In this document: in pieces, positions 1-60,395 of the stretch
How positions within the stretch are numbered: position 1 is the first letter of the stretch
Layout of the letters: the number at the start of each line of letters is the position of its first letter
IMG/VR virus record: IMGVR_UViG_3300028888_000052
DNA: 64,000 bases
Source of the DNA: a virus
Taxonomy: Duplodnaviria > Caudoviricetes
Reading direction: 5' to 3' (one strand)
Program-made: the position numbers and the translations under genes
Notes under the pieces: model-generated
Database searches by the model: none
What the model saw: only the letters and a program-made list of their open reading frames with translations
Told to the model about the DNA's origin: nothing

Positions 1-1
1 G

Positions 2-1078
2 GTTAATACCAGAAACTTTCAATACATCTTTAAGAGCTTCAGCCATATATTCATAGTTTTGGCAAGATGAACCAGCATTAACTGAATGGAATACTGTTAC
101 ATTAACATTATCTTTAGCTTCAGTAATAGCTACAAATGTACCATTTGCACAGTTAAGAAGTTTAACATTGTTAAGTACACAAATGTTTTCCATGTTCTCA
201 AATAAATCAGCGCAATTAGAAGCAATATTCATAAATGCCATCTTTTCTTGAATTGGCATAGTCTTTGAAAGCATATTAGCATATTCACGGAACTTAATTG
301 ATTCAGTGAAAGTTTCATTGATTTTACCCTTTTCAAAAGTAATAGACTTTTCAAATTTATTCTCATCAATTTCTTTATCAGCAATAGTAATCTTATTCAA
401 ATCACCATGTGTACTTCTAAATTCATATATAAGATTATTGTCTTCATCTCTCTTAAATGATTCAAGAAGTTTGTTATATCTAGCAAATGCTTGGTCATCA
501 CATTTAACTTGATTAACTTTACCTTCAGAAATCTTATAAGATGTACCATTAATCATGAAAGTAACATCTTCACCTTCTTTAATAATATATGAAATAGGAG
601 AAGTTACTGTATATTGATTAGTATAAGCTTCTGTAACATTAGTCTTATACACTTCTTTACAAACTTGTCTGAATTCTGGAATATATTGGATATTCTTCAA
701 AGCACCAGCTTTAATATAAGATATTACATTAGATTCATCCATTTCTAAAATCTTTTCAACTTGTTGTACACCTAACTTATTGATGTAATTATAAGTTGAG
801 TTGTTGTTAGAAATACTTTCACATGCAGAAGCAAGTTTCCAAGAAATGTTATTTTCGTTAATGAACTTATTTACAGATTCCAATATACTCATCAAACCTG
901 TATCAAAGCTTAATTTAGATGCTTCAAGAACGAAGCCATTAACTATACCGCAACTTGCAGGATTAGTGTACACATATGCACGATAGTTGTTCAAAATCTC
1001 CTTACCTGCCTCTGTGATAGCTTCAGTTGAATTAATCTTTTCAGCAAAGTTAAGGTCTTTAAGTAATTTTATGCTCAT
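2..1078 (-). CDS. Partial CDS running off the left edge; probable prohead core/internal head protein
   Basis: Open frame from ATG at 1078 (MSIKLLKDLNFAEKINSTEAITEAGKEIL...) with no stop before the window edge; many (I/L/V)xE-(A/S/N) sites (ITEA, VLEA, ILES, INEN, VTEA); absent from ORF track because it is truncated. Confidence 0.6.
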   Translation of the reverse strand, partial: MSIKLLKDLNFAEKINSTEAITEAGKEILNNYRAYVYTNPASCGIVNGFVLEASKLSFDTGLMSILESVNKFINENNISWKLASACESISNNNSTYNYINKLGVQQVEKILEMDESNVISYIKAGALKNIQYIPEFRQVCKEVYKTNVTEAYTNQYTVTSPISYIIKEGEDVTFMINGTSYKISEGKVNQVKCDDQAFARYNKLLESFKRDEDNNLIYEFRSTHGDLNKITIADKEIDENKFEKSITFEKGKINETFTESIKFREYANMLSKTMPIQEKMAFMNIASNCADLFENMENICVLNNVKLLNCANGTFVAITEAKDNVNVTVFHSVNAGSSCQNYEYMAEALKDVLKVSGIN

Positions 1079-1180
1079 ACTTTATATATTTGTTATATTT
1101 TTGTCGGTATCATATAGTTATATTTAATAATATAACTATTTATATAATAATAAAATTTTTATTCAATTATTTTATAAGAT

Positions 1181-1459
1181 TTACATTTTCCAACCCATAG
1201 TAGTTCCAATAGCACCCATTACTAAACGAGAAGTAAGTAATGAACCAAATGAACCTTTTGGATCAACTCCTAAAGCTTTACAAATAGCACCACCAAGTTT
1301 TGGACCTAAAGCAGCACCTAATACAGCACCACCAATAGCACCAAATATACCTTCATTAATTGGTGTTCCATTTTCTTTAGCTTCATTAAGTTTTTGTATT
1401 ATATCATCATATGTCAAATCCTCATTTACTGGATTTGCAATTTCTTCCATTGACTTCAT
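1181..1459 (-). CDS. Small protein with acidic propeptide and glycine-zipper hydrophobic C-terminal part; putative internal head protein
   Basis: MKSMEEI...PINE/GIFGAIGGAVLGAALGPKLGGAI. Confidence 0.55.
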   Translation of the reverse strand: MKSMEEIANPVNEDLTYDDIIQKLNEAKENGTPINEGIFGAIGGAVLGAALGPKLGGAICKALGVDPKGSFGSLLTSRLVMGAIGTTMGWKM

Positions 1460-1466
1460 ATTAAAA

Positions 1467-1871
1467 CTATTTATTTAATTTATTCCAAATTTTATCAAAT
1501 GTCTCTTTGTCAGGTATAGGTATGAAACATCTATCAATAAATACTCCAAGTATATATTGCTCATTTTTAGTTTTCTTACCACTCATATAATCTGCTAAGA
1601 ACCCATCATATAAACCAACATTTTTAGAATTATCTGTACTGTTGTTTGGATCCCCAACTTCGATATTCAAAGAGTCTAAAGTAGCCCAAGCCATACTTGA
1701 AAAATTAATATCTGTTAAAAACATTGGCTCTTGTGAATGTTTACCAGAATTTGCATCCCATTTTTCAATACGTTTAGCAATCATTGATAACATTGAGTTT
1801 TCACCATCTTTGAACATTGATATAATTGATTGTTCTTTATCTTCGGTAATAATATCTTCTATAGTTCTCAT
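1467..1871 (-). CDS. Hypothetical protein with capsid-targeting-like N-terminus
   Basis: MRTIEDIITED; ends in TAG. Confidence 0.55.
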   Translation of the reverse strand: MRTIEDIITEDKEQSIISMFKDGENSMLSMIAKRIEKWDANSGKHSQEPMFLTDINFSSMAWATLDSLNIEVGDPNNSTDNSKNVGLYDGFLADYMSGKKTKNEQYILGVFIDRCFIPIPDKETFDKIWNKLNK

Positions 1872-1890
1872 TTTAAATATTGTTTATATA

Positions 1891-2898
1891 TTAAAAATAA
1901 TTCTTTTTTATAGTTTCTTTTATATGTGAGATATTAGATACTTTATCATATAAAATTTCTGGGTGAATGGTATTTGAATATTTATGTATAATTTTTCTAA
2001 TTATTTTATAATCTCCAAAAGTTATGTTATTAGAATTCATCAAATCCCATTTTCTAAAATATATTTTCAAAATATTCATTATAATTAAAGCTCCTAATGC
2101 ATTAGTATGATGTTTTTGAATATCTTCTATATCTCTTGAAAATGCATTTAATTCATAAAATTTATGTATCTTAAAAAAATTTATAACCGGTTGGTCGATA
2201 TTAAAATATTTTATATTATTCTCTAAGCATCCTTGTTTATATAAATCTTCTAATTCTAAACATCTTGGTTTTATTTTTATTACACCATCATCATAACGTG
2301 TAAATGGATATTGTCTACATAAATATTTTTTTCCTTGTGGCCAATATCTACATAATATACCTAAATCAATTGAAATATCATCTTGTTTTTGATCTCTTAG
2401 GGTATTAGCCCCATCCATTATAAAAATTATATCATTATCTGTTGGGTATACTGCTTCAAATTTATGTAATATATGTGTATGCCAATTTAAAGATTTTCCT
2501 GATTGTGAAAAATTAATAAACTCAATATTATCTTTTAAAAAGAATGGAATATATTGTGCATAAGACATATATGTTATTATATCTTTATGATAATAAGAAT
2601 GACTATCACCAATTAAGATAAATTTTCTAGTATTAGTTATTTTTTCTTTATTTATTATTTCGAAATTATATTGTTTTTTTCCAAATACAAAAAATTCAAT
2701 ATCTTTTTCCTTTAACCAACCAGGTTGTGTATGTCTATAAATCCAATTATGATAATTAAATATAATTGTATTTCTATCTTTATTTATATGGCCATAATAT
2801 AAAACACAATTTTTCATACCAAATATTATTATATCATCTGGTTCTTTTATATCTAATAATTTAATTGTAAATTTATATAAACCTACTTCTTCAGTCAT
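1891..2898 (-). CDS. SGNH/GDSL hydrolase-family protein
   Basis: Block I ILIGDSHS, block II NFSQSG, block III DGANT, C-terminal KHHTNALG. Confidence 0.65.
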   Translation of the reverse strand: MTEEVGLYKFTIKLLDIKEPDDIIIFGMKNCVLYYGHINKDRNTIIFNYHNWIYRHTQPGWLKEKDIEFFVFGKKQYNFEIINKEKITNTRKFILIGDSHSYYHKDIITYMSYAQYIPFFLKDNIEFINFSQSGKSLNWHTHILHKFEAVYPTDNDIIFIMDGANTLRDQKQDDISIDLGILCRYWPQGKKYLCRQYPFTRYDDGVIKIKPRCLELEDLYKQGCLENNIKYFNIDQPVINFFKIHKFYELNAFSRDIEDIQKHHTNALGALIIMNILKIYFRKWDLMNSNNITFGDYKIIRKIIHKYSNTIHPEILYDKVSNISHIKETIKKNYF

Positions 2899-2948
2899 GA
2901 AATGTTTTAAATATATATCTTTCTATGTCTTCTATATTTAAAAATAAA

Positions 2949-2969
2949 AAGGAGTAATAAATACTCCTT
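2949..2969. terminator. Intrinsic terminator hairpin
   Basis: AAGGAGTA-ataaa-TACTCCTT just downstream of the 2975-4582 stop; U-tract on - strand. Confidence 0.65.
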
Positions 2970-2974
2970 ATATT

Positions 2975-4582
2975 TTAATATTTTTTTCCTCCACGTTGTG
3001 CTTGTAATTTCATTTGTTCTTTAATCATTGACTTACAATCATCATCAGAAAAATCTGGCATCTTTCCACAAGATTCAAAAATTTTAGCACATATTGTGAA
3101 AGTACGAATAGAAACTTCCATCTTAGCATTTGATTCAAGCATTTCTATAAGATAATCATAAGCTTTTATCTTAGATTTAGAGCTTAAATGTTCGGGATCA
3201 AGAGCAGGCATAAGTTTTTTGATAATCTTAAGAATATCTTCTGTTGTGAAGTGAATATCTTGCACAAATGAACGTCCACGAAGAGCAGTATCTAATTGAC
3301 CAGCATTATAGTTTGTGATAACTATTATACCACCTCTATAATAGAATCTCTTAGGAAGTTCTTCACCATCATCATTCATAATCTTACCAGAAACACCATA
3401 AGATACAAGTCTTCCTTCATCATCGGATGTACTATCAAGTGCACCTTTCAAAATATTTATACAATCTTCAGGTGCTTTAGGTCCTACCAATCCATCGGCA
3501 TCATCAATTACAACTATTTGACCTTTATCTTGATATTCATATAAAGTACAATAAAGAACACGAGGAGTACATTTACCTTTAATTGTAAACATACCATGAC
3601 CTTCATGATAATCATGTGCTTTAAGTTGTTGCTTAATACGATATGTTTTACCTACACCAGGAGCACCACAAAGAATTACAGATGGGTTAGTTCCATCAAT
3701 AACCATATTTACATAAGCGGCCATCTTTTTGAAAACTACATCTGGGTCTTCTCTTTCTTGTTCAAATTCCTTTTCAACTTTTTGTTCATCATCATCAGGA
3801 ATATAAGATACTGATAAGTTACGTTTCAAAGCAACTTGAAGTTCTTCCATAGTAGAAGCTCCACCTTTAATAGCTTTTACTATTTCATCATATTCATCTT
3901 TTAAATTATTAAAACGTTGTTTAGCTTCTGGAGATTCTTTTCTATGTAAATAAGCTTCATCTCGTTCAGCACGTTTTCTATTCTTGTAATCTTTTACTTC
4001 ATCATCTGCTTCTTGAATATTCAAAAGATATGCTTCATCAATTATTTCATCTGACATATTTTCTAATATCCTATAACTAAGTGCTCCTACATAATATAAA
4101 GATTCTTTAACACCTTGTCCTTTGAATACAGATCTACCTAAATCTATAGCTTCTTTTTCTGATAAATCATATTTTTGGTTATTTGCTACAGTCCATATAA
4201 TAGGTAAGAAATAAACAATTGATTTACCTAAAGTATAAATTGTTAATGATGATTTTGATTTACCATTAAATAAAAGCTCAAGGTCTTTGAAAAAGTCTAT
4301 TGAATAAACTTCTGTTGTAGATGAAGATTTAATCCAGTTAATTTGGAATAAAGATGTTTGCCCATATTTCTTTCCATGAAGAACCATGAATTGTTTAGAA
4401 TAAACTTCTTTATCACCAATTTTATTAAGAACTATACCTTCTAATGGGATTAAACCATCTATCTTGTCAGTAAGTACTTTAATAATCAAATCTAAAGCTT
4501 TATCAATATTCTTTTCAGAAAAACCTTCATTAATATTAAATTGTTGACGTTTATCTATAAATTCTAAAAATGTTTTTCTCAT
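2975..4582 (-). CDS. AAA+ ATPase with long N-terminal domain and capsid-targeting-like leader
   Basis: Walker A GAPGVGKT, Walker B VVIDDAD, sensor ITN, Arg finger ALRGRS; leader MRKTFLEFIDKRQQFNINEG. Confidence 0.8.
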   Translation of the reverse strand: MRKTFLEFIDKRQQFNINEGFSEKNIDKALDLIIKVLTDKIDGLIPLEGIVLNKIGDKEVYSKQFMVLHGKKYGQTSLFQINWIKSSSTTEVYSIDFFKDLELLFNGKSKSSLTIYTLGKSIVYFLPIIWTVANNQKYDLSEKEAIDLGRSVFKGQGVKESLYYVGALSYRILENMSDEIIDEAYLLNIQEADDEVKDYKNRKRAERDEAYLHRKESPEAKQRFNNLKDEYDEIVKAIKGGASTMEELQVALKRNLSVSYIPDDDEQKVEKEFEQEREDPDVVFKKMAAYVNMVIDGTNPSVILCGAPGVGKTYRIKQQLKAHDYHEGHGMFTIKGKCTPRVLYCTLYEYQDKGQIVVIDDADGLVGPKAPEDCINILKGALDSTSDDEGRLVSYGVSGKIMNDDGEELPKRFYYRGGIIVITNYNAGQLDTALRGRSFVQDIHFTTEDILKIIKKLMPALDPEHLSSKSKIKAYDYLIEMLESNAKMEVSIRTFTICAKIFESCGKMPDFSDDDCKSMIKEQMKLQAQRGGKKY

Positions 4583-4585
4583 TTT

Positions 4586-6265
4586 TTATATAAAATATAT
4601 TTCGACTGGTTGTAATTTTATAAAATCATTCTTATTATCTAATTGTTTCTTATTTGGATAATATTTTATAGATGATATTATAGGCATTTCTAATTTACTA
4701 TTCAAAGATATGTTTCCAAATTTATCTAAACCTGGTTGCATATCAGATTCATACATAACTTTTCTCTTTACATAATCAAATGTTCCATTTATCTCTTTGA
4801 AAACATAATCATAATAATAAGTATTATAATAGCAACTTTCTGCTAAATCAGAATAAAATGTTATTTCTAATGATTTAATAGATTTAATATTATCTAAAAG
4901 ATATTTGGTTAAATCAGATTTAGGTATAAATTGAGTGTTAGTTAATTTATTCATGAAATACAATGCTATATACCTTTTAATAGTGGTTTTTATAGCATCT
5001 CTTTCATAGACATTATCTAATTTCACATAACACATAATAGCAAATTTTCTAATAATTGGATCTTCAAACCTAAGAGTAATTCCAGCAAATGATTTTTGTG
5101 AATTATCTAATGTATTTTGAATCATTTCTTTTTGTGATTCATCTAATAATATCTTATTGTCGGTCAACTCAAAATACTTTTCTGGATTACGTAATTCTTT
5201 AGAAAGATTTTTAGTACATGAGGCAATTACATACATAGAGTTTGTTTCACTCCAACAATTTACAGTACCTATAAAAGAAAATCTCTTGAAGAATAATTCA
5301 AAATTATCTTTAGATGCTAATACTAAAGATCTTGAATTTTTACCTACCATATTACGTATAAATTCAATACTATCTGAATTAGTTCCACCAGATACACATT
5401 TTTGTAATTGCAATATCAAATATCTATTCAAATCTATATTGTTACCAAATACATCTTTACCAACAGCGGCAAATTTGAAATTAGTTACTTCATCTGGTAA
5501 AATATTTCCAGTAACACCAGCATGTTTTAAATATTCAACTCTTATATTTTGACCTTCAATAAGCTTAGTGCCATATATTCCATTACCAAAAATTATATTA
5601 AAAGTATTTTCATAACCAACTTCACAAATATATTCATTTCCATTTTCTGACATATCATAAAGATTAGCTACTTGTTTATATTCAACACCATCTACTAATA
5701 CTTTAAGAGATTCTTTATCAAATAAATCTATAGAATATACACTAAATGTCTCTAATGGTTTTCCTTCTGATACAAAATTATGAACCGAAATGTTTCCTTG
5801 GATGATTTTAAATTCATGGTTAATCAATGGCTTAGAAACATCAACAACATAATAATCAGTTGGCAATTCAATCAAATATGTTACACCAGTATTTTTATTT
5901 ATAATTGGAGTATAATTTTGAATATATATTTTAGTTGTATTAGAATCTAATCCATTATTTAATATCAATTTACAAAGAATTGTTCCTCTAGCTGCTGAAC
6001 CATAAAAAGCATCATAACCGGATATCTTAGCTAATGAATAAACAGATTTTTTACGTGTAGCAGTAAATATATTTTGCTCATTCAAAGCATCTTCAATATA
6101 AAACATCATATTTTGCATTACACCCTTAATACCATCAAATATTACTCCAAATATTTGAGTATGAGTATATTGCAAACCAAGATTATTAAATGTCTTTGAT
6201 AGATATGATCTTATTGTTTGGTCATAATTATCAAAACTAGTTTGTATAATATTAAATAACTTCAT
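4586..6265 (-). CDS. Baseplate wedge protein, T4 gp6-like
   Basis: ATRKKSVYSLAKISGY, IIFGNGIYG...IRVEYL...G.TGN and SGGTNSDSIEFIR are typical gp6/baseplate J motifs; adjacent to a gp25-like gene. Confidence 0.75.
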   Translation of the reverse strand: MKLFNIIQTSFDNYDQTIRSYLSKTFNNLGLQYTHTQIFGVIFDGIKGVMQNMMFYIEDALNEQNIFTATRKKSVYSLAKISGYDAFYGSAARGTILCKLILNNGLDSNTTKIYIQNYTPIINKNTGVTYLIELPTDYYVVDVSKPLINHEFKIIQGNISVHNFVSEGKPLETFSVYSIDLFDKESLKVLVDGVEYKQVANLYDMSENGNEYICEVGYENTFNIIFGNGIYGTKLIEGQNIRVEYLKHAGVTGNILPDEVTNFKFAAVGKDVFGNNIDLNRYLILQLQKCVSGGTNSDSIEFIRNMVGKNSRSLVLASKDNFELFFKRFSFIGTVNCWSETNSMYVIASCTKNLSKELRNPEKYFELTDNKILLDESQKEMIQNTLDNSQKSFAGITLRFEDPIIRKFAIMCYVKLDNVYERDAIKTTIKRYIALYFMNKLTNTQFIPKSDLTKYLLDNIKSIKSLEITFYSDLAESCYYNTYYYDYVFKEINGTFDYVKRKVMYESDMQPGLDKFGNISLNSKLEMPIISSIKYYPNKKQLDNKNDFIKLQPVEIYFI

Positions 6266-20347: not shown

Positions 20348-20580
20348 TATTTATTTGGAAATAATTTTGATTGAACTTCTTTAACATTTGTTTTAAATTT
20401 ACTACTGTGGTCATATAAGACTCCAAGTATAGACATCTTTGCTCCATTTGCAAGTTTTGGTAATAAATCATCAAGTTTTTCTCCTTCTATAAGTTTAAGA
20501 ATTAAAACTTGTGGGGTCATTTTATCAAAATCTGGTGCTGCATAGTGGTCTTCATTTATTCTTTGTATTAAATCTTTCAT
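20347..20580 (-). CDS. Small putative internal head protein
   Basis: MKDLIQRINED leader. Confidence 0.55.
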   Translation of the reverse strand: MKDLIQRINEDHYAAPDFDKMTPQVLILKLIEGEKLDDLLPKLANGAKMSILGVLYDHSSKFKTNVKEVQSKLFPNK

Positions 20581-22226
20581 TATTTCTCCTTTTCTTTATT
20601 TTTCTTTTCTTCAGCTTCTTTAGCTTTCTTTTCTGCTTCTTCTTTGAAACTATAAGCTAAATCATCTTCAAGAATATGTTTCTTTGCAGGATTAATTTGA
20701 TAAGCCATACGAGACATTACATCACGATTTATAAGAACTTTTTGTTTCTTATTACGATTATCAACTAATGCAAATTCTACATCAAGAAGTTTACGTGAAC
20801 CAACTTGTATACATGGTATAATAACTGTAGTACGTTCTTCTGTTTGTTGACCAACAATAGCATGTGATTCACCTTCTTTCTTGAATTGATATTTCTTACC
20901 ATCAATAGTGGCAATAACAAGATTACCTTTATAATCTACTGAATCACATCCAATAGTTGAAGCTTTAGCACCATTACCTGTATCAAATTTAGCTTCAAAT
21001 TCAAATTCATCATCATTATCCATAATGAATTTTACATTTTCAAGATATCCTATAGCCTTAGGAGCAAGTACTAATTCATTAACATCATTGATTTCATCAA
21101 GAAGGATTTCCATAAAGTTATCATCAATAACTTCAGAAATACCATCTGTACCTGGAGAAGCATTATATTCAAGAACAACATTATCTCCAACTTCAGGATT
21201 AGAACCTTTTACAAGTGGCATAATGTCAACAGCACACCAAGGCATACCAGAAATTTTAGCAACTTTTAATGCTATTTCTTCTTGTTCTGGAGTAAGAGTT
21301 ACTTTTTCAGCAGTAGCACCAAGTGAAACATTAGAACGGAAGTCACCACCAATCTTCTTACGTTTCATTTGTGCAAGTATTTTTTGGTGAGTTCTCATTG
21401 TTAATACATGAACACGGATATCACCACCATCAGCTTCTTCTTTCTTTTGTACTAATAATTCACGTTCTTCATCAACTGCAAATACCATTTGAAGCATTGA
21501 AAGAATTGTTTTACCAGTTTGCATTGTAACACCAGTTCCACCATGACCATCAAGTATCTTTACAACATATTCTTTCTTTTTATCTTCATCTTCATTCTTA
21601 CCAACATCTGGATAAATTTCTTTAAGTTTCTTCTTAAGAGATTCTTCACCTTTGTTTATATCATTTTTTGATATAAGAGTAAATTTAGGTTGAGGAATTT
21701 CATAACGTTCCATTAAAACAGATGATTGATATTTATTAGAAGCTTTCTTAGCTGCTTGAATAGGGTTAAGTACAAAGAATCCCCAATCTTGAAGTTCTTT
21801 AATAAGTTCCATACATTCTTCAGAATCTTGTGCACCAAGACGAGTTATAACAATTGTATCAACATTAGATTGTTCATCAATTTTATATTTATTCTCATTA
21901 TCGTGCCATTCGATTACATCATCTGTAGCTTTATAATCAACTTCTTCTGCAACAAATGGGAATATATCAACACCTTTACCTTTAACAGCTTGTTCAAGAT
22001 TCTTTAATGTTTTATTAGTTTTTGAATCTCTATCATTTGTAAAGATAATGATATTTTTGAAGAAATATCCTTTCTTTTTATCTTCTTTTTCAGCTTCAGT
22101 TATTTGTGTTTCTTGTACTGGAGTTTCTTCTTTTTTTGATTCTTTGATACGACCAGCATATCTAAATTTCAAATCATCAACTGACTTGATATTTCTATAA
22201 TCAATAATATCGTTTAAATTTTTCAT
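20580..22226 (-). CDS. RimK-family ATP-grasp ligase fused to a retropepsin-like (RimB/PF05618-type) protease
   Basis: ATP-grasp motifs NKY, VVKILDGHGGTGV, DIRVHV, DFRSNVSLGA, AVDIM, VLEYNASPG; protease motifs IGYLENV, AKFDTGNG, VLINRDVM. Confidence 0.85.
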   Translation of the reverse strand: MKNLNDIIDYRNIKSVDDLKFRYAGRIKESKKEETPVQETQITEAEKEDKKKGYFFKNIIIFTNDRDSKTNKTLKNLEQAVKGKGVDIFPFVAEEVDYKATDDVIEWHDNENKYKIDEQSNVDTIVITRLGAQDSEECMELIKELQDWGFFVLNPIQAAKKASNKYQSSVLMERYEIPQPKFTLISKNDINKGEESLKKKLKEIYPDVGKNEDEDKKKEYVVKILDGHGGTGVTMQTGKTILSMLQMVFAVDEERELLVQKKEEADGGDIRVHVLTMRTHQKILAQMKRKKIGGDFRSNVSLGATAEKVTLTPEQEEIALKVAKISGMPWCAVDIMPLVKGSNPEVGDNVVLEYNASPGTDGISEVIDDNFMEILLDEINDVNELVLAPKAIGYLENVKFIMDNDDEFEFEAKFDTGNGAKASTIGCDSVDYKGNLVIATIDGKKYQFKKEGESHAIVGQQTEERTTVIIPCIQVGSRKLLDVEFALVDNRNKKQKVLINRDVMSRMAYQINPAKKHILEDDLAYSFKEEAEKKAKEAEEKKNKEKEK

Positions 22227-51695: not shown

Positions 51696-52675
51696 ATGAA
51701 ATACACATTTGACGTTACAACTCGTGAAAACGAGAATATAATTAAATTAGATGTTAGTTATGGTTCTTTATCTAATAATGTTACTCGTACGGTTACATTT
51801 GTAGGTGGAGAAGATCATGATGATCCAGCTTTAGATGAACTTTTAACTAATTGCATAGATAATATGCGTTTAACTGTTAAAGAACGTGAAGAAGCAATCT
51901 ATAATGCCGGAGTATTTAAATGGTATATTCAACAATATGGAATAAATACTCAAAAAAAGGAAACAGAAAATGTCATGATTGTTGAAAATAATGACTCAAG
52001 TGTAATACCACAAGAATTAGTATAATGTTAAGTTTATTTGAGCAATTAAAAGAATATCCTGAAGAATTCATCAAAGCATTGGATATAGTCAAATACAAGA
52101 ATTTCGAAATATTTTTTACTGATGCATTAAAACGATTTAATGTCGTTGAAGATTATAATAAAATGTCACCTGAAGAAAGAAATGGTGCTTATGAATTATT
52201 TAAAAGAGTATATGTCTATGGATTTTATAATGGTGTAAGTTTTACACTTAATCCAGATAAATATTTTGATGAAACAGTAAAAGATTATCCAAATGACACC
52301 GATCCTAGAAAAGACTTGTAAATGCATTAAAGAATGTATATTTGATGGTTATGAATTTCATAAAGGAAGAGAATATCAAGTAGATATTTATCCATTATTT
52401 AATAAAATATATAATAATGGCGGGTGGGATGACTACATATTCTTTGAAGATAATAATGAAAATAAATTTAACGAATATTTCAAGTTAATAGAATGATTAA
52501 AGATATTGAAGTATTAAATGAGATAAAGGCAATTAGGAAGAAAACTGAATTATTAGCTAATCCTTTATATAATGATTTTTGTGGTTCTCATTTTTGGGGA
52601 GATATCGATAAGAGATTAGAACAAATTGAAAACGATATTGAAAAAGATTTAAAAGCATTTAATTTTTTAAAATAA
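51696..52675 (+). other. Hypothetical genes (51696-52025, 52025-52321, 52293-52496, 52493-52675)
   Basis: Overlapping, co-oriented ORFs. Confidence 0.5.
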
Positions 52676-52700
52676 AAATGGAGGTCTTAGACCTCCATTT
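52676..52700. terminator. Bidirectional terminator
   Basis: AAATGGAGGTCT-t-AGACCTCCATTT. Confidence 0.8.
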
Positions 52701-52702
52701 AT

Positions 52703-53878
52703 TTATTTCATTTTTTTCTTCATATCTTCAATCATTTTTTCAACTTCTTTACAATATTCATCTACATCATTAAATTTTTCTTTAGCAGATGATTTGTCAA
52801 AGTTCCATTTATCAAAGTCCTTTTCATCAAAATCTTCACCTTTATCTTTTGCTCTTTGTTTTGCTCTTTCAGTTGCTTTATCACCTTTTGCTTTATATTT
52901 GAATGCATCATAGAATGATTCATAAGCATGTGAACAATAAGATAAAAGTCGACCAACATCAAAGTATTCATCCATATTTTCAGGATTAGACATAATCTTT
53001 TCCATTGTGGCAATAGCTTCAGCATGAACTTTATTGATTCTTTCCATCAATTGTTTTGGATCTCCTTCAAGTTTCTTTGCTTTCATTTCTTTTACCATTG
53101 CTTGATAACGGGCTTTTTGTTCTTTAAGCATCTTCTTAAGAGATTCTTCATCATAATTAATTATACCTTTTTGTGAAGCAATACGTGTGTCATGAAGTTT
53201 GGTGTATTCTGCTTTCATATTATCAGTAATTTGAAGTACATAAACATCTAAACCACTAATTACCGTCATTGCTTCCTCAAACTTAAGAGATCTTTCACCA
53301 TATTTATATTTTGTTGCTGTTTTTTCTGTAACGGCATCTCTATTACCATATTTTGATTTGAATCCAAAAACTCTTACATCACCAGGAGTATTTGAATATC
53401 CTTTAATGAACATTACTACATTTTGAGTACCTGGTTCGCAACAAATAAAATTAGCTTGGTTTTTCTTTGAATAGCAATCCTTAAGTATTTTACTAAAAGT
53501 TTTGTCATCGGCACTAACTGATTTATATAGTTCAAAATCATCATCTTTAATTTCATTCCATTTAAGACCTTGTAAACCAGTTTTTTGATCACCATAACGT
53601 TGATGGAGTGTTATTGGGCCAAATATTGATGCAAATGATTTTGCCGTTTTACTTGGAGTACCAGAATAACCGTTATCTTTATAATGTTGTTCTGTTTTTC
53701 TATCATGTTCAGCATTATCCTTTTCTGCATCTTGAATAGCTTTAGCAAGAGCTTTTAAAATAGAAGCTTTAAAACTTTCATTAATTTGAAGAACTTCTTC
53801 TCCTTCAAGTATAGCATATTCTTCTAAGACTTGTTTCATATACACAGCCTTATTCAATGATTCATATAAACTTTGCAT
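52703..53878 (-). CDS. Putative internal head protein
   Basis: MQSLYESLNK...ILEG..VLQINES leader; isolated - strand gene preceded by the late motif. Confidence 0.55.
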   Translation of the reverse strand: MQSLYESLNKAVYMKQVLEEYAILEGEEVLQINESFKASILKALAKAIQDAEKDNAEHDRKTEQHYKDNGYSGTPSKTAKSFASIFGPITLHQRYGDQKTGLQGLKWNEIKDDDFELYKSVSADDKTFSKILKDCYSKKNQANFICCEPGTQNVVMFIKGYSNTPGDVRVFGFKSKYGNRDAVTEKTATKYKYGERSLKFEEAMTVISGLDVYVLQITDNMKAEYTKLHDTRIASQKGIINYDEESLKKMLKEQKARYQAMVKEMKAKKLEGDPKQLMERINKVHAEAIATMEKIMSNPENMDEYFDVGRLLSYCSHAYESFYDAFKYKAKGDKATERAKQRAKDKGEDFDEKDFDKWNFDKSSAKEKFNDVDEYCKEVEKMIEDMKKKMK

Positions 53879-53993: not shown

Positions 53994-54266
53994 ATGGCAC
54001 AAATTTATCCTTATTATGTAGTAGCTCGTATTGATGCAGGTCAAATGGTAAAAATCTTTCATGATAAGAAGTTTAATTCTTACATGGCAGCTGTAGATGC
54101 TATGAATAGAAAATATGAGTCATTAAGAAAGGTTTATAACAGAAATCTAATGGAGGATTCTCAAATTGTTATTTTAGAATATACTAAACAATATCAAGGA
54201 AAAATTTGTACAATATATAGCTTTAATAAACGAATTCAAATAAGTGATCCAGAGGAGGCAATATGA
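53994..54266 (+). CDS. Hypothetical early protein
   Basis: ORF after promoter. Confidence 0.55.
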   Translation: MAQIYPYYVVARIDAGQMVKIFHDKKFNSYMAAVDAMNRKYESLRKVYNRNLMEDSQIVILEYTKQYQGKICTIYSFNKRIQISDPEEAI

Positions 54267-54456
54267 TAATTAAAACGGCACATGGTAGACGTAGTGGAAT
54301 CCATGCTAAAGAACATATAAAATATAAACCATTCGGGATTTATATTACTAGACCAGAAATTCCACCATTTGGTAGAGGTAAATATATGAAAGGAATTTAT
54401 TATCTTAATTTTAGGTGGAAACTTAAGATATTTCAAATAATGTTTAATTTTAATAA

Positions 54457-55152
54457 ATGAATAAGCCAATTAGAAATATACTTTGTTATTCTCATTATGA
54501 TTTTGATAATATAATGAGAGATCACTGTTGGACAGATAAACTTCCTGAAGGGGTTTCTGCAATATCAATATGTTCTCCAAATGAGGGTGATCTAGCAGAA
54601 CATTGGTTTAAGAAAGAGCATAAAGATGGATTAACTAGTTCAAGAGTATTTAATCTTGATATTGATGATTTAAGTCCATTTTGGTTTGAAAATCATGAAA
54701 GTAAATGTTATGATGATGCTTTAGATTTATTTAATGATGGAAAAATTAAAGAGTCAAACAGATATTTCAACTATCTCTATATATCTGGTCCAAACAGAGA
54801 ATGGGTGGATATTGTACATGCTCTTGACTATGAAGAAGCATTTGACCTCGCAAAATGGATTGATTTTAGAATCAAACATGATGAAACAATTTATATACAC
54901 TGCGCAGTCGGGGCTTCAAGAAGTCAAGGTGTTGTAAGATATATTGTTGATACTTATAAATATGATTATGATATTAGATTGAATCCAAACAATCCTAATA
55001 ATACATATAATCCACATGTATTGATGATGTTGAAACGTGCATATATGAATAGTGATTTTTATTCTTGTATAACACGTGATGATGAACATGATTATTTGAA
55101 TTATACAGAACCAATGAAGTTTAATAAAGATATTAAAATCAATTTAGTATGA
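54457..55152 (+). CDS. Protein tyrosine/dual-specificity phosphatase-like protein
   Basis: CX5R loop IYIHCAVGASRS; AISI; PNxxV-like end (YNPHVL). Confidence 0.8.
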   Translation: MNKPIRNILCYSHYDFDNIMRDHCWTDKLPEGVSAISICSPNEGDLAEHWFKKEHKDGLTSSRVFNLDIDDLSPFWFENHESKCYDDALDLFNDGKIKESNRYFNYLYISGPNREWVDIVHALDYEEAFDLAKWIDFRIKHDETIYIHCAVGASRSQGVVRYIVDTYKYDYDIRLNPNNPNNTYNPHVLMMLKRAYMNSDFYSCITRDDEHDYLNYTEPMKFNKDIKINLV

Positions 55153-55343
55153 CAGATATAAAAGCAATTGCAGAAGAATTAGTTAATCTAACAGCACAAG
55201 AAGTAAATGAACTTGCTATGGTTATGAAACATGATATGGATATACCAGCAGTTCGTTATGAAGAACCCAAATATAGAGATAATAAAAATCTTACACCAAA
55301 GCAATATGGTCAAATGAAAAATTATAAACACAATAAAAGATAA
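55149..55343 (+). CDS. Ribosomal protein bL12 (L7/L12) N-terminal-domain-only protein
   Basis: MTDIKAIAEELVNLTAQEVNELA.VMK....I matches the Bacteroidota bL12 N-terminus; no C-terminal domain. Confidence 0.75.
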   Translation: MTDIKAIAEELVNLTAQEVNELAMVMKHDMDIPAVRYEEPKYRDNKNLTPKQYGQMKNYKHNKR

Positions 55344-55545
55344 TAATATGACTAATAAAGAATTGATGATTGCCTATAAAGTTATTTCTAAAATGATGAA
55401 AGAAAATACAAGAGCAAGTTATAACAATTCATTTGTAACTGTAAAGAATTGTTTAGCTAATAAAATTTGTGAGCAATTAGAAGATGGCCAGCAATTTTAA
55501 TAAGGAATAACTAATACGAAAATCCTAATTATATTAAAGTAGTCG

Positions 55546-55571
55546 AAAGAAGAGATTAATTTCTCTTCTTT
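55546..55571 (+). terminator. Terminator hairpin
   Basis: AAAGAAGAGA-ttaatt-TCTCTTCTTT. Confidence 0.65.
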
Positions 55572-55606
55572 TGTTCTATATTATATTATAAATAAATATT
55601 TAGAAT

Positions 55607-56665
55607 ATGGAACAGAAAGATTATTTAATCATTTATCATAGAGAAGATAATGATGGTGTATTTTCTGCTGCTATTATAGAAGATTATATCATTAATTCTC
55701 TTGGTAAAAACCTCGAAGATTTAGTATTTTTAGGTGCAGATTATAATATGCTTAATGGTTTTATTAAGGATAGTTATAATACTCCTGAGCAATTACATAA
55801 AGATTTTAAGCATATTGTCATGACTGACATTTCATTTAATGATACCAAGTTCATGAAGAAACTTTATAAAGAGTTTGGTTCTGATTTTATATGGATTGAC
55901 CATCATGCACCTATAATTCAAGAATCTATTAAGATGAATTTTGATGAGATTCCTGGAGTACGTGATACACAACGTTCAGCTATTCTTAATGCTTGGAAAT
56001 TTTTATATGATCCATTTGATGAAGCTTACAAAGAAAAGAAAGTACCTGAATTACTTCGAATTTTGTCAGGTTGGGATTCTTGGTCATATGAAAGAGAAGG
56101 TTACACTAATGATTATGTAAGAAATATTAATAAAGCTGTAACTATCAAGTATCATTTGTCATTAAGTGAAGCTCGTAAAATTGTACATGATTTGGTTAAT
56201 GTATATGTTAAGAATGAGCCTTCCGGTAATATGTCAGGAGTTTTTAAGGATGGACCACTTATTGAACAACTTCATGAATATGGAAAACAACTTAATGATT
56301 ATGATGATATAACTAATAGAAGTATTATTGAAATATCAGGAGATAAATCTTGGGAATTAGTCATTCATGATAAAGATTTAGACGAGACAAAAGTTCGTAA
56401 GTGTTGTGCAATATTCCATCAAGGTGCTACCAATTCATTAATGTTCAAATCATTACATAATACTGATATTAGAAATGGTATAGTGTTTAAGCATAACCCA
56501 AGTGGTACATGGACAATATCATTATATAATATTAATGATGATGATTGGTTCCACTGTGGAGAATATTGTAAAGAAACTTATGGTGGTGGAGGGCATAAAG
56601 GAGCTGCTGGTTGTCAAGTTTCTGAATCACAATTTATTAAGATTCTTAAAGCTAAGAAGATATAA
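55607..56665 (+). CDS. DHH/DHHA1 phosphoesterase
   Basis: YHREDNDG, MTDIS, WIDHH, GGGHKGAAG. Confidence 0.9.
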   Translation: MEQKDYLIIYHREDNDGVFSAAIIEDYIINSLGKNLEDLVFLGADYNMLNGFIKDSYNTPEQLHKDFKHIVMTDISFNDTKFMKKLYKEFGSDFIWIDHHAPIIQESIKMNFDEIPGVRDTQRSAILNAWKFLYDPFDEAYKEKKVPELLRILSGWDSWSYEREGYTNDYVRNINKAVTIKYHLSLSEARKIVHDLVNVYVKNEPSGNMSGVFKDGPLIEQLHEYGKQLNDYDDITNRSIIEISGDKSWELVIHDKDLDETKVRKCCAIFHQGATNSLMFKSLHNTDIRNGIVFKHNPSGTWTISLYNINDDDWFHCGEYCKETYGGGGHKGAAGCQVSESQFIKILKAKKI

Positions 56666-56879: not shown

Positions 56880-59444
56880 ATGATTATAATTAAACGAGAT
56901 GGTACTCCCCAAGAATATTCTTTCTTGAAAATCGCGGATGCCGTACATAAAGCGTTTGCTTCGGTAGACCAAGATGTTCCAGATAAGTTTCTTGAGCAAG
57001 TAAAAGATTCAGTAGAAAAGCTAATTATCAAAAACAATGGTAATGGTACGGGTATAGAAGAAATTCAAGATTGCATTCAAAATGAGCTTATTAAGCGTAA
57101 TAAGTTTGAAGTTGTAGAATCATTTATTGCATATCGTAAAGAACGTGAACGTATTCGTTTGGAAAATACCGATTTGATTAAACAAATTGAAGAAAAGCTT
57201 TATGCAACAAATGTACAAAACCAAAATGCTAATTTAGATGAAGACTCTTTTGGTGGTCGTTTAGGAGAAACTTCAGGTGTTGTCGCTAAAGATAGAGCTC
57301 TTAAGAAGATGTCTAAAATTGGTCGTAAGAATCATGAAGGAAATATGGTTTATATCCATGACTTAGATCATTGGTTAGTAGGTGATCACAACTGCTTGTC
57401 ATATCCATTTGATAGTAAACTTAAAGATGGTGTTGTTACAAGACAAACTGATGTTAGAACAGCCGGTTCAATTAATACTGCTATGCAACTTGTTGCTGTT
57501 AATTTCCAATTACAATCATTACAACAATTTGGTGGTGTTGCTGCTACACATATTGACTGGTCTATGGTACCTTACGTCCGTAAATCATATAGAAAACACT
57601 ATATCTTTGATTGGATTAAGAAACAACCAGAATTTTCAGATCTTGATATTTTAGGTTTAACATATGAAGAGCTTAAACACTGGGTTGAAAATATGATTAC
57701 TAAGTTTTATTTAACTACAAAACTTAAGGATGAAGATTTTACATTTGCTAATAAGAATCTTGATAATCAATTACGTCAAGAATCATTATTAGATACAAAA
57801 CAAGAAACATACCAAGCGGTTGAAGGTATGTATCATAATTTAAATACTCTTCAATCACGTTCAGGTAATCAACTTCCATTTACTTCTATAAATTATGGTA
57901 CTTGTACAGAATTAGAAGGACGTATGGTAACTAAAGCCCTTCTTGAAGTTTCTATAGAAGGACTTGGTAAACATGGTGTAACATCAATATTCCCTTGTGG
58001 AATTTTTCAAATTAAAAAAGGAGTTAATTTCAAACCAGGTGATCCGAACTATGATTTGAAGCGTCTTGCATTGAAATCAACAACTATGCGTATTTATCCT
58101 AACTATGCTAATTGTGATTGGTCAAATCAAGTAAATTGGTTTAATGCTGATAGAAAACAAAAACAAGAATATATTGAGTCATTATCTGATCATGATTATG
58201 TACAATTGACAAGTGCTATTGAAGATGAACCAAAAATATGTTTTGATAAAGTTGGTTTATATGTTGATGATAGTAAACGAATTCGTGTAGATATGACAGA
58301 ACGTCCTATTGAATATTTCTCTACAATGGGTTGTCGTACTGTAAATGGTCTTGATATTAATGCATTTGATAATTTCAAGAGAAACGTACAATGCATTATG
58401 GATGGTAGATATGATGATATAGATGATGTGTTCTCAAGTGTTATTAAAGATGGTCGTGGTAATATTTGTCCTACAACAATTATTATGCCAACACTTGCAG
58501 CTATGACTCGTAAGAAACTTGAAAAGAAATGGGAAGATTCTGGTGCTGAATATGTTAAAGGACCTGAATATGAAGAAATGATGTTCTCTGAATTTATGAA
58601 ACTTCTCGACAAGAAGATTCATGAGGCTAAAGATATGTTACTTGAACGTTTCAATCATATTTGTTCACAATCACCAAAATCTGCTCGTTATATGTATGAA
58701 AATCATACTATGGCTGGATATCATGAAGAAGAAGGAATTATTTCAGCTCTTAAGCATGGTACAATTGTTATTGGTCAATTAGGTATGGCCGAAACTCTTC
58801 AACTTTTATTTGGTTATGATCATACTACAAATAAAGGAATGGAATATGCTAAGAAGATTGAACAATTATTCTTAGATAGAACCTCAGAATTCAAAAAAGA
58901 ATATAAACTCAATTTTGGTGTTTATTATACTCCTGCTGAATCATTATGCCATACAGCTATGAAGAAATTCCGTAAAGCATTCCCTCAATATTGTCTTGAA
59001 AATGTAACATATTACATTAAGAAAGATGGTGAAAAGAAAGAGAAAGAATATTTTACAAACTCTATTCATGTACCAGTTTATTATGAATGTGATCCATTTA
59101 AGAAGATTGATATTGAAAGTCAATTGACAACTTATTCAAATGCCGGTTGTATTACTTATGTAGAGTTACCAAGTATATCATTCAATAATATAGATGGTGT
59201 TGAAAAAATAGTTGATTATGCTATTGAACATGATATCCCTTATTTTGCATTGAATTTCCCTCTTAATAGATGTGCAAGATGTGGTGAACCTATTTATGAT
59301 TCTGATTTAGAAGAATGTCCAAAATGTGGTTGCAAGAAAATAATTAGATTAGGTCGTGTAACTGGTTATCTTTCTACAACAGTTGAACATTTTAATAAAG
59401 GTAAACAAGATGAATTTTATGATAGAGTAAAACACATGAAATAA
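56880..59444 (+). CDS. nrdD: Anaerobic (class III) ribonucleoside-triphosphate reductase with ATP cone
   Basis: IIKRDG ATP cone, YIHDLD, HNC, TMGCRT, TPAESL, YFTNS, CxxC...CPxCG, glycyl-radical motif RVTGYL. Confidence 0.95.
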   Translation: MIIIKRDGTPQEYSFLKIADAVHKAFASVDQDVPDKFLEQVKDSVEKLIIKNNGNGTGIEEIQDCIQNELIKRNKFEVVESFIAYRKERERIRLENTDLIKQIEEKLYATNVQNQNANLDEDSFGGRLGETSGVVAKDRALKKMSKIGRKNHEGNMVYIHDLDHWLVGDHNCLSYPFDSKLKDGVVTRQTDVRTAGSINTAMQLVAVNFQLQSLQQFGGVAATHIDWSMVPYVRKSYRKHYIFDWIKKQPEFSDLDILGLTYEELKHWVENMITKFYLTTKLKDEDFTFANKNLDNQLRQESLLDTKQETYQAVEGMYHNLNTLQSRSGNQLPFTSINYGTCTELEGRMVTKALLEVSIEGLGKHGVTSIFPCGIFQIKKGVNFKPGDPNYDLKRLALKSTTMRIYPNYANCDWSNQVNWFNADRKQKQEYIESLSDHDYVQLTSAIEDEPKICFDKVGLYVDDSKRIRVDMTERPIEYFSTMGCRTVNGLDINAFDNFKRNVQCIMDGRYDDIDDVFSSVIKDGRGNICPTTIIMPTLAAMTRKKLEKKWEDSGAEYVKGPEYEEMMFSEFMKLLDKKIHEAKDMLLERFNHICSQSPKSARYMYENHTMAGYHEEEGIISALKHGTIVIGQLGMAETLQLLFGYDHTTNKGMEYAKKIEQLFLDRTSEFKKEYKLNFGVYYTPAESLCHTAMKKFRKAFPQYCLENVTYYIKKDGEKKEKEYFTNSIHVPVYYECDPFKKIDIESQLTTYSNAGCITYVELPSISFNNIDGVEKIVDYAIEHDIPYFALNFPLNRCARCGEPIYDSDLEECPKCGCKKIIRLGRVTGYLSTTVEHFNKGKQDEFYDRVKHMK

Positions 59445-59894: not shown

Positions 59895-60395
59895 ATGCTT
59901 AGAATAGTAGATATAACTGCACCAGATATAAATAATGGAAATGGATTAAGAGTAACTTTATGGGTTGCTGGATGTAATCATAGATGTAAAGGATGTCATA
60001 ATGCTTGGACATGGAAATATGAACAAGGTAGAGTTTTTTCTGAAGAGCAAAATAAGATATTTGAAGAACTATCAGAATGGTTAGATAGAGATTATATAGA
60101 AGGATTAACATTATCTGGTGGAGATCCGTTGGCTCAAGATAACGATGGTCTTTGTGAACTTTATTCAATCATTAAATGGTTTAAAGAAAAATACCCTACA
60201 AAAAATATTTGGCTTTATACTGGATATACTAAAGAAGAAATTGATAGTATGAATGATTATATCTTACATAAAATAGTTGATTCTATCAATGTTTTAGTAG
60301 ATGGTCCTTATATAGAAGAAAAAAGAGATATCGCCCATACTCCATTTAGAGGAAGTACTAATCAAAGGTTAATTTACATAAATAATCAAAAATAA
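59895..60395 (+). CDS. nrdG: Anaerobic RNR activating enzyme (radical SAM)
   Basis: NGNGLRVTLWVAGCNHRCKGCHN, LTLSGGDPL, WLYTGY, VLVDGPY, FRGSTNQR. Confidence 0.95.
   Translation: MLRIVDITAPDINNGNGLRVTLWVAGCNHRCKGCHNAWTWKYEQGRVFSEEQNKIFEELSEWLDRDYIEGLTLSGGDPLAQDNDGLCELYSIIKWFKEKYPTKNIWLYTGYTKEEIDSMNDYILHKIVDSINVLVDGPYIEEKRDIAHTPFRGSTNQRLIYINNQK

Follow-up and report, generated by a model that had tools for sequence, protein, structure and literature searches.

A phage protein family that joins the N-terminal domain of ribosomal protein bL12 to a conserved basic module common to a second phage family

A stretch of 64,000 nucleotides of viral DNA (Caudoviricetes; IMG/VR record IMGVR_UViG_3300028888_000052), referred to here as the window, encodes a protein of 64 residues that sequence and profile comparison identify as a chimera. 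Its first 36 residues are, on these comparisons, unambiguously a captured anchor domain of host bL12, and its basic C-terminal module is homologous to the end of a coiled-coil protein that forms a second phage family. The protein is not a bL12, since it lacks the hinge, the C-terminal domain (CTD) and the operon context. It belongs to a family that, by the homology, gene-context and codon evidence given below, is real, restricted to phages and under purifying selection. That such a protein would take the place of bL12 on uL10, with a basic helix where bL12 has its GTPase-recruiting head, has in our estimate an even chance of being correct.

The gene (Table 1; coordinates include the stop) begins in an ATGA overlap, its ATG lying on the stop of the upstream gene, and it ends in two TAA codons in a row; the translation is exactly that of a preliminary description made from the letters of this DNA. 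The window has a GC content of about 27% and contains phage hallmark genes for a baseplate wedge subunit, a clamp-loader-like protein, a gp32-like SSB, NrdD and NrdG, and therefore belongs to a large T4-like phage. Within it, the bL12-like gene sits inside a terminator-bounded unit among genes of replication and nucleotide metabolism (gp32-like, NrdD/NrdG, DHH), surroundings that are typical of early or middle phage genes. The terminator scan detected 7 terminator-like sites against 1.0 expected from shuffles, and a scan for sigma-70 promoters, uninformative for a Bacteroidota phage, did no better than shuffles (34 sites against 32.6). Elsewhere in the window a perfect hairpin with an 11-bp stem (52676-52700), terminator-like on both strands, lies between the convergent genes 52493-52675 (+) and 52703-53878 (-).

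Table 1. Coordinates of the bL12-like gene, its parts and neighbours in the window, and of genes of the coiled-coil family at related loci (L numbers)
Feature	Coordinates	Strand	Basis
Whole gene, chimera of bL12 N-terminal domain, linker and basic C-terminal module	55149..55343	+	ORF, translation, family of at least 55 sequences, dN/dS 0.12-0.22
bL12 N-terminal (dimerisation/uL10-binding) domain, Prevotellaceae type, residues 1-36	55149..55256	+	hhalign, PF16320, AF2 helices
C-terminal module, residues 38-64, homologous to the C-terminus of the sibling family	55260..55340	+	hhalign, motif statistics, tail profile
Upstream gene, 231 aa, Cys-phosphatase-like (C-x5-R signature)	54457..55152	+	weak PF00782 DSPc match, phrog_5614
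Downstream 50-aa ORF, same transcription unit, no family assignment	55348..55500	+	Pfam/PHROG comparison
Terminator-like hairpin and T-run at the end of the five-ORF unit 53994..55500	55544..55573	+	terminator scan
Sibling gene, L004	805-1059		
Sibling gene, L005	4152-4406		
Sibling gene, L006	1295-1549		
Sibling gene, L116	3155-3439		
Sibling gene, L119	2501-2752		
Sibling gene, L120	2501-2728		
Sibling gene, L121	2501-2749		

The neighbourhood of the gene is that of a phage and not of a ribosomal protein operon. The gene does not lie beside rplJ (uL10); it is flanked by the phosphatase-like gene and small phage ORFs, with DHH and NrdD genes nearby, and for comparison the cellular rplKAJL-rpoB arrangement is seen at L008. 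The upstream protein matches PF00782 (DSPc) with an E value of 1.9e-4, which is below the cut-off, and phrog_5614 with an E value of 1.3e-11. The order of phosphatase-like and bL12-like genes is kept in L002, L004, L007, L116, L119 and L121, and also in L005/L006 with a 35-aa ORF in between, and the phosphatase-like neighbour is missing beside the bL12-like gene of the distant family members L009-L012. The idea that the C-terminal tail recruits this neighbour was accordingly demoted, the neighbour being kept in the close clade only. The downstream 50-aa ORF has a presumed counterpart, recognised by eye only, at L116 3490-3648. Further downstream in the window follow a DHH/DHHA1 phosphoesterase (phrog_4771; 55607-56665, +), the anaerobic ribonucleotide reductase NrdD (56880-59444) and its activase NrdG (59895-60395, +), an order also kept downstream of the bL12-like gene in L002, L007 and the 45-kb contig of P0014. 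In the related phages L005 and L006 one more translation-related gene, for a 72-aa IF1-like protein (PF01176), follows the bL12-like gene at a distance of about 3 kb (L005:7071-7289, L006:4214-4432). In the window itself, the gene at 20580-22226 (-) has a product of 547 aa that contains a RimK-like ATP-grasp domain (PF08443, E 9.6e-21). RimK glutamylates the ribosomal protein bS6, and the RimK-like protein may be a second ribosome-directed function of the same phage.

The evidence for the bL12 origin of the N-terminal domain (NTD) is strongest at the level of the family. Taken alone, residues 4-34 match the Pfam family Ribosomal_L12_N (PF16320) with an E value of 0.0045 and 17.1 bits, under the gathering score of 25, and 50 of the 55 family members match it at E<=0.01. 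When the family alignment was compared with 30 cellular bL12 sequences of Bacteroidota, hhalign gave 99.0% probability and an E value of 3.7e-18 over columns 1-36 only. These results bear out the preliminary description, which had recognised a Bacteroidota bL12 N-terminus in the first approximately 30 residues and had proposed a comparison with the Ribosomal_L12_N model. Residues 1-32 are 72-75% identical to full-length cellular bL12 proteins (125-126 aa, with PF16320 and PF00542). Among 80 genome loci the closest are bL12 of Prevotella/Prevotellaceae with 22-24 of 32 residues identical, followed by the types of Bacteroides, Flavobacterium and others with 17-19 of 32; this points to a Prevotellaceae bacterium as the probable host, and the phage is probably a large one infecting Prevotella-type bacteria of the rumen or gut.

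AF2 predicts two helices in the domain, at residues 4-12 and 16-29. NTD structures of L12 have been solved for Thermotoga maritima in complex with L10 (PDB 1ZAV) and in the entries 1DD3/1DD4. A sequence search of the PDB returned L7/L12 NTD chains as its only matches, at the weak E values of 0.7-1, and a Foldseek search of the PDB with the AF2 monomer, a small and uncertain model (pLDDT 69), gave no match. The similarity to bL12 ends with the anchor. The Ala/Gly-rich hinge is absent, the alignment with cellular bL12 stopping at column 36, and in the Pfam scan the C-terminal domain PF00542 was not matched at E<=1, PF16320 being the only family listed. The polar residues E9, E10, N13, E18, N20 and E21 are invariant or nearly so throughout the family. 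Position 30, an invariant aromatic residue in the cellular set, is Met, Ile, Val or Phe in the close clade, and Gly31 of cellular bL12 is Asp there, so that the interface is not identical to that of the host.

The domain was captured long ago and has been held close to the host protein since. The bL12-like gene has a GC content of 28% and a GC3 of 12%, as against 53.5% and 54% in host rplL, and in the comparison with host rplL the identity at third codon positions is 41%, with pS 0.84 and pN 0.15. The low third-position identity, the high pS and the phage-like GC3 indicate an old capture, in which selection and not recency keeps the domain host-like. Between close pairs, dN/dS, a check proposed in the preliminary description, is 0.12-0.22 for the whole gene, which indicates purifying selection, and approximately 0.09-0.21 for the NTD alone. 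Compared over one and the same set of phage pairs, identity is 64-88% in the NTD, 68-93% in the neighbouring enzyme and only 24-71% in the plain coiled coil of the sibling family, whose drift goes down to 24-28%. The NTD is thus conserved like the neighbouring enzyme, and hence more constrained than a mere oligomerisation helix.

Where cellular bL12 carries its Ala-rich hinge, the phage proteins have a linker of approximately 5-27 residues that is variable in sequence and rich in Tyr, Glu, Lys and Pro. It leads into a basic tail with the core motif [LST]-[ST]-P-[KR]-x-Y-G-x-x-[LK] and, after it, a run of K/R, the part from [ST] to [LK] corresponding to residues 49-57. Across the 55 sequences the motif Tyr is present in 55, the Gly in 54 and the Pro in 53, and this Tyr and Leu11 are the only invariant residues of the whole protein. 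About 50% of the tail residues are K or R and only 5 of 624 are acidic. The net charge is +5 over residues 50-64 and -5 over residues 1-32, and AF2 predicts a helix at residues 50-63. The preliminary description had noted correctly that the hinge and CTD are gone and that a basic tail stands in their place. It had called this tail new and had missed that conservation within the protein is highest there and that the tail is a module common to a second phage family. Two further origins of the tail were considered and rejected. A relic of the bL12 hinge and CTD is not indicated, since hhalign finds no detectable similarity between them (P 0.84), and neither is a mimic of a host protein or of a solved peptide, the best matches of the tail profile being at chance level both in five Prevotella-type genomes (E 0.09) and among PDB sequences (E 3.5). 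Within the 64-kb window there is only one such tail motif.

The second family, here called the sibling family, comprises at least 90 clusters of proteins of 75-94 aa on contigs of up to 474 kb and has no Pfam family. Its most conserved part is a C-terminal H-P-E-W-F-E-T-T-S-P-K-E-Y-G followed by a basic run, and the pattern E-x-P-x-[WY] ... [ST]-P-K-x-Y-G-x-x-L plus basic run is shared by both families. When the part of the bL12-like family outside the NTD was aligned with the sibling family, hhalign gave 96.9% and an E value of 1.6e-10 over 30 columns, with a score of 46.7, whereas 30 shuffles of the columns reached 9.2 at most. Furthermore, a tail profile built from the bL12-like family alone finds the sibling gene at E 5.3e-8 in the 376-kb phage, and nothing else there. 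Residues 38-64 are therefore homologous to the sibling C-terminus, which makes the protein a chimera. The N-terminal parts of the two proteins differ: AF2 models the sibling as one long helix over residues 10-59, with a pLDDT above 90, and a tail helix at 69-83, and its N-terminal part has no similarity to bL12, while the 64-aa protein lacks this coiled-coil helix of about 50 residues and has the two-helix NTD of bL12 instead.

The two genes are also frequent neighbours. The sibling gene lies directly 3' of the bL12-like gene and overlaps it, usually by approximately 38-44 nt, in L004, L005/L006, L116, L119 and L121. At L116 the sibling has 94 aa and is placed between the bL12-like gene and the counterpart of the 50-aa ORF. 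In the 64-kb window no sibling gene was found, and none separates the bL12-like gene from the 50-aa ORF; at L120, conversely, a sibling is present without an adjacent bL12-like gene.

The architecture of the 64-aa protein recurs in at least 55 distinct sequences, which form approximately 30 clusters at 50% identity, with overall identity across the 55 falling to approximately 31-40%. A word-indexed search yielded 30 clusters of 61-73 aa, and 1.84 billion representatives, searched exhaustively with the profile, likewise yielded approximately 30 clusters (50% identity) that span the whole profile including the tail; all other profile matches among these representatives were NTD-only, to cellular bL12 or fragments thereof. 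Contigs with family members range from 14 to 376 kb and, where this can be judged, show phage-like contexts, namely in this window, in L005/L006, L007, L010 (DUF3310), L012 (YopX-type) and L119-L121, and in a 376-kb IMG/VR genome. The latter, L116, is a UViG that is 98% complete and was found in a second IMG/VR scan with P0014 as query, a first scan with an alignment query having confirmed no locus. The atlas neighbours of the protein are labelled viral in 100% of cases. Among 401 Prevotella-type genomes searched with the profile, 342 had a match and two of them a second one, and among the matches listed none is a tail-bearing copy, all being of rplL type (NTD at 1-37, frames of 126-155 aa).

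Megablast of the GenBank phage collection found nothing, and the sole tblastn match there, MT836236.1, was discarded as a bacterial rplKAJL-rpoB locus mislabelled 'Bacteriophage sp.'. This entry (1-5839, human faeces) holds a complete rplK-rplA-rplJ-rplL-rpoB that is 81-93% identical to a Prevotella-type locus, with a GC content of 42%, and has probably come from a bacterium and been filed under phages by mistake. Short catalogue 'proteins' that combine a bL12 NTD with other tails were rejected as further families, being frameshift or chimera artefacts of cellular rplL.

Phage-encoded ribosomal proteins as such are already known; phages tend to copy exchangeable ribosomal proteins, of which bL12 is one (Mizuno et al. 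2019, PMC6375957). The present family resembles those proteins in being phage-borne, of the exchangeable type and under purifying selection. The published viral bL12 proteins carry the factor-binding Ribosomal_L12 C-terminal domain, often within larger proteins (PMC6375957), so that the opposite half, the NTD, is kept in the 64-aa protein. The nearest precedent in logic is a mycobacteriophage homologue of bL9, in which the anchoring N-terminal domain is kept and the C-terminal domain is non-homologously replaced (PMC6375957). Basic/aromatic extensions of phage bS21 are predicted to aid binding to the ribosome or to RNA (PMC7162821), and 'L7/L12' is merely listed among the ribosomal proteins of huge phages by Al-Shayeb et al. 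Compared with Prevotellaceae bL12 (L7/L12, rplL) itself, the likeness consists in residues 1-36 and in the two-helix prediction, which fits the NTD hairpin, whereas hinge, PF00542 and rplJL context belong to bL12 and the phage-encoded protein has an unrelated basic module instead. In architecture it is also similar to archaeal aP1 and eukaryotic P1/P2, which combine a dimeric anchor on uL10/P0, a linker and a short recruiting peptide (see PMC3794596). The peptide of P1/P2 is acidic and hydrophobic whereas the phage tail is strongly basic, and the 64-aa protein has no Pfam match to these proteins, so that the likeness is one of analogy only. A full-text literature search returned no paper describing a phage bL12 that consists of the NTD only, or the shared tail module.

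In bacteria, the NTD dimer of bL12 binds segments of 10 residues in helix alpha-8 of uL10. The CTDs recruit IF2, EF-Tu, EF-G and RF3, and fewer bL12 dimers per ribosome slow the steps that depend on IF2 and EF-G (PMC3299993). Given the bL12 origin of the NTD, the stalk, that is uL10 or bL12, is the most economical target of the phage protein. The captured domain would form a dimer of the type that clamps onto helix alpha-8, and in early or middle infection homodimers, or mixed dimers with host bL12, would fill bL12 sites on uL10. Each site filled in this way would lose one factor-recruiting head and gain a basic helix near the GTPase-associated centre. This Tyr-containing helix of approximately 25 residues could bind a ligand, either rRNA, mRNA or tRNA or an acidic protein, and the outcome would be that IF2, EF-G and EF-Tu are recruited differently or that the ligand is tethered to the ribosome. 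By analogy with the extensions of phage bS21, the basic and aromatic composition of the tail suggests RNA as the ligand, and an acidic protein surface is equally possible. A complex prediction for the C-terminal part of a host-like uL10 (residues 110-172) with two family copies scored 0.07 (mark 0.32) and allows no call. Against this reading, weaker recruitment of factors would also slow the synthesis of phage proteins, so that the phage would gain nothing obvious from a mere decoy. The earlier proposal of a ribosome-stalk mimic finds partial support in a phage-encoded, host-derived NTD without hinge and head that is maintained by purifying selection, a putative displacement of host bL12 being its further step; nothing points to two of the roles proposed with it, the blocking of stalk-dependent defence toxins and the titration of the L10 operon.

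The main alternative, which we consider rather unlikely, is that the protein acts away from the ribosome as a dimeric nucleic-acid binder, in which the bL12 NTD only dimerises and shows two basic helices in the manner of a reversed bZIP to phage or host DNA or RNA (in a genome of 27% GC), for instance in gene regulation or nucleoid handling. The sibling family speaks for it, as the same module, with its invariant Tyr, approximately 50% K/R and nearly no acidic residues, is found there on an unrelated coiled-coil protein predicted to consist of a long helix and a tail helix; the tail may therefore have a target outside the ribosome, with the NTD perhaps doing no more than dimerising it. In addition, the [ST]-P-[KR] start of the motif resembles the SPKK-type motifs that bind the minor groove, but the fourth motif position is mostly Q/E and not basic, unlike in SPKK. 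Simpler dimerisation helices are open to phages, the sibling having one, and the NTD is far nearer to host bL12 than dimerisation needs, polar surface residues included. These conserved, host-identical polar residues, together with the enzyme-like conservation of the domain, favour a ribosomal target over mere dimerisation.

The same NTD homology that argues for replacement of bL12 on the stalk also speaks for a decoy acting off the ribosome, which we consider distinctly improbable. Newly made host bL12 would be drawn into mixed dimers, or free uL10 would be capped, with the tail adding only solubility or affinity; new host ribosomes would then be starved of stalks, or the autoregulation of rplJL by uL10-bL12 would be disturbed. 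Such a role fits the background in that bL12 NTDs form stable dimers and that, in E. coli, translation of rplJL is repressed by the uL10-(bL12)n complex. However, it leaves a specific, shared tail motif with an invariant Tyr unexplained, and the assembly of new ribosomes is probably a minor target within one lytic infection. The conservation of the tail and its presence in a second family argue for a gain of function, in which the tail binds something, and against a plain headless decoy. Finally, a functionless decaying rplL fragment or an assembly or annotation artefact, an option raised in the preliminary description and suggested by the many short bL12-NTD catalogue entries that are singletons with random, frameshift-like tails, can practically be set aside, in view of a tail conserved in at least 55 sequences, a dN/dS of 0.12-0.22, and the exact 64-aa protein on 9 contigs, the longest of 213 kb, with synteny kept.

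What is new in this family is that the head of bL12 has been replaced by a conserved module common to a second phage protein. If the anchor only dimerises, the family would show clearly how a virus can exapt a domain of a ribosomal protein and put it to an unrelated use. If, on the other hand, the anchor docks on uL10, the protein would be a naturally evolved means of rewiring the ribosomal region that recruits every translational GTPase, in hosts of the Bacteroidota, which dominate gut and rumen communities, and would offer a scaffold, small and natural, on which cargo could be tethered to the stalk of bacteria. A bolder extension, which we put forward tentatively and consider rather unlikely, is that of a phage-built stalk arm, in which the host-matched anchor brings a basic docking helix to the GTPase-associated centre and the coiled-coil sibling competes for the ligand or hands it over, the two forming a system that re-addresses ribosomes. 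If true, this two-part system could steer host ribosomes towards phage mRNAs or towards a phage or host factor, and it would be, in architecture, the bacterial-virus counterpart of the eukaryotic and archaeal P-stalk peptide system.
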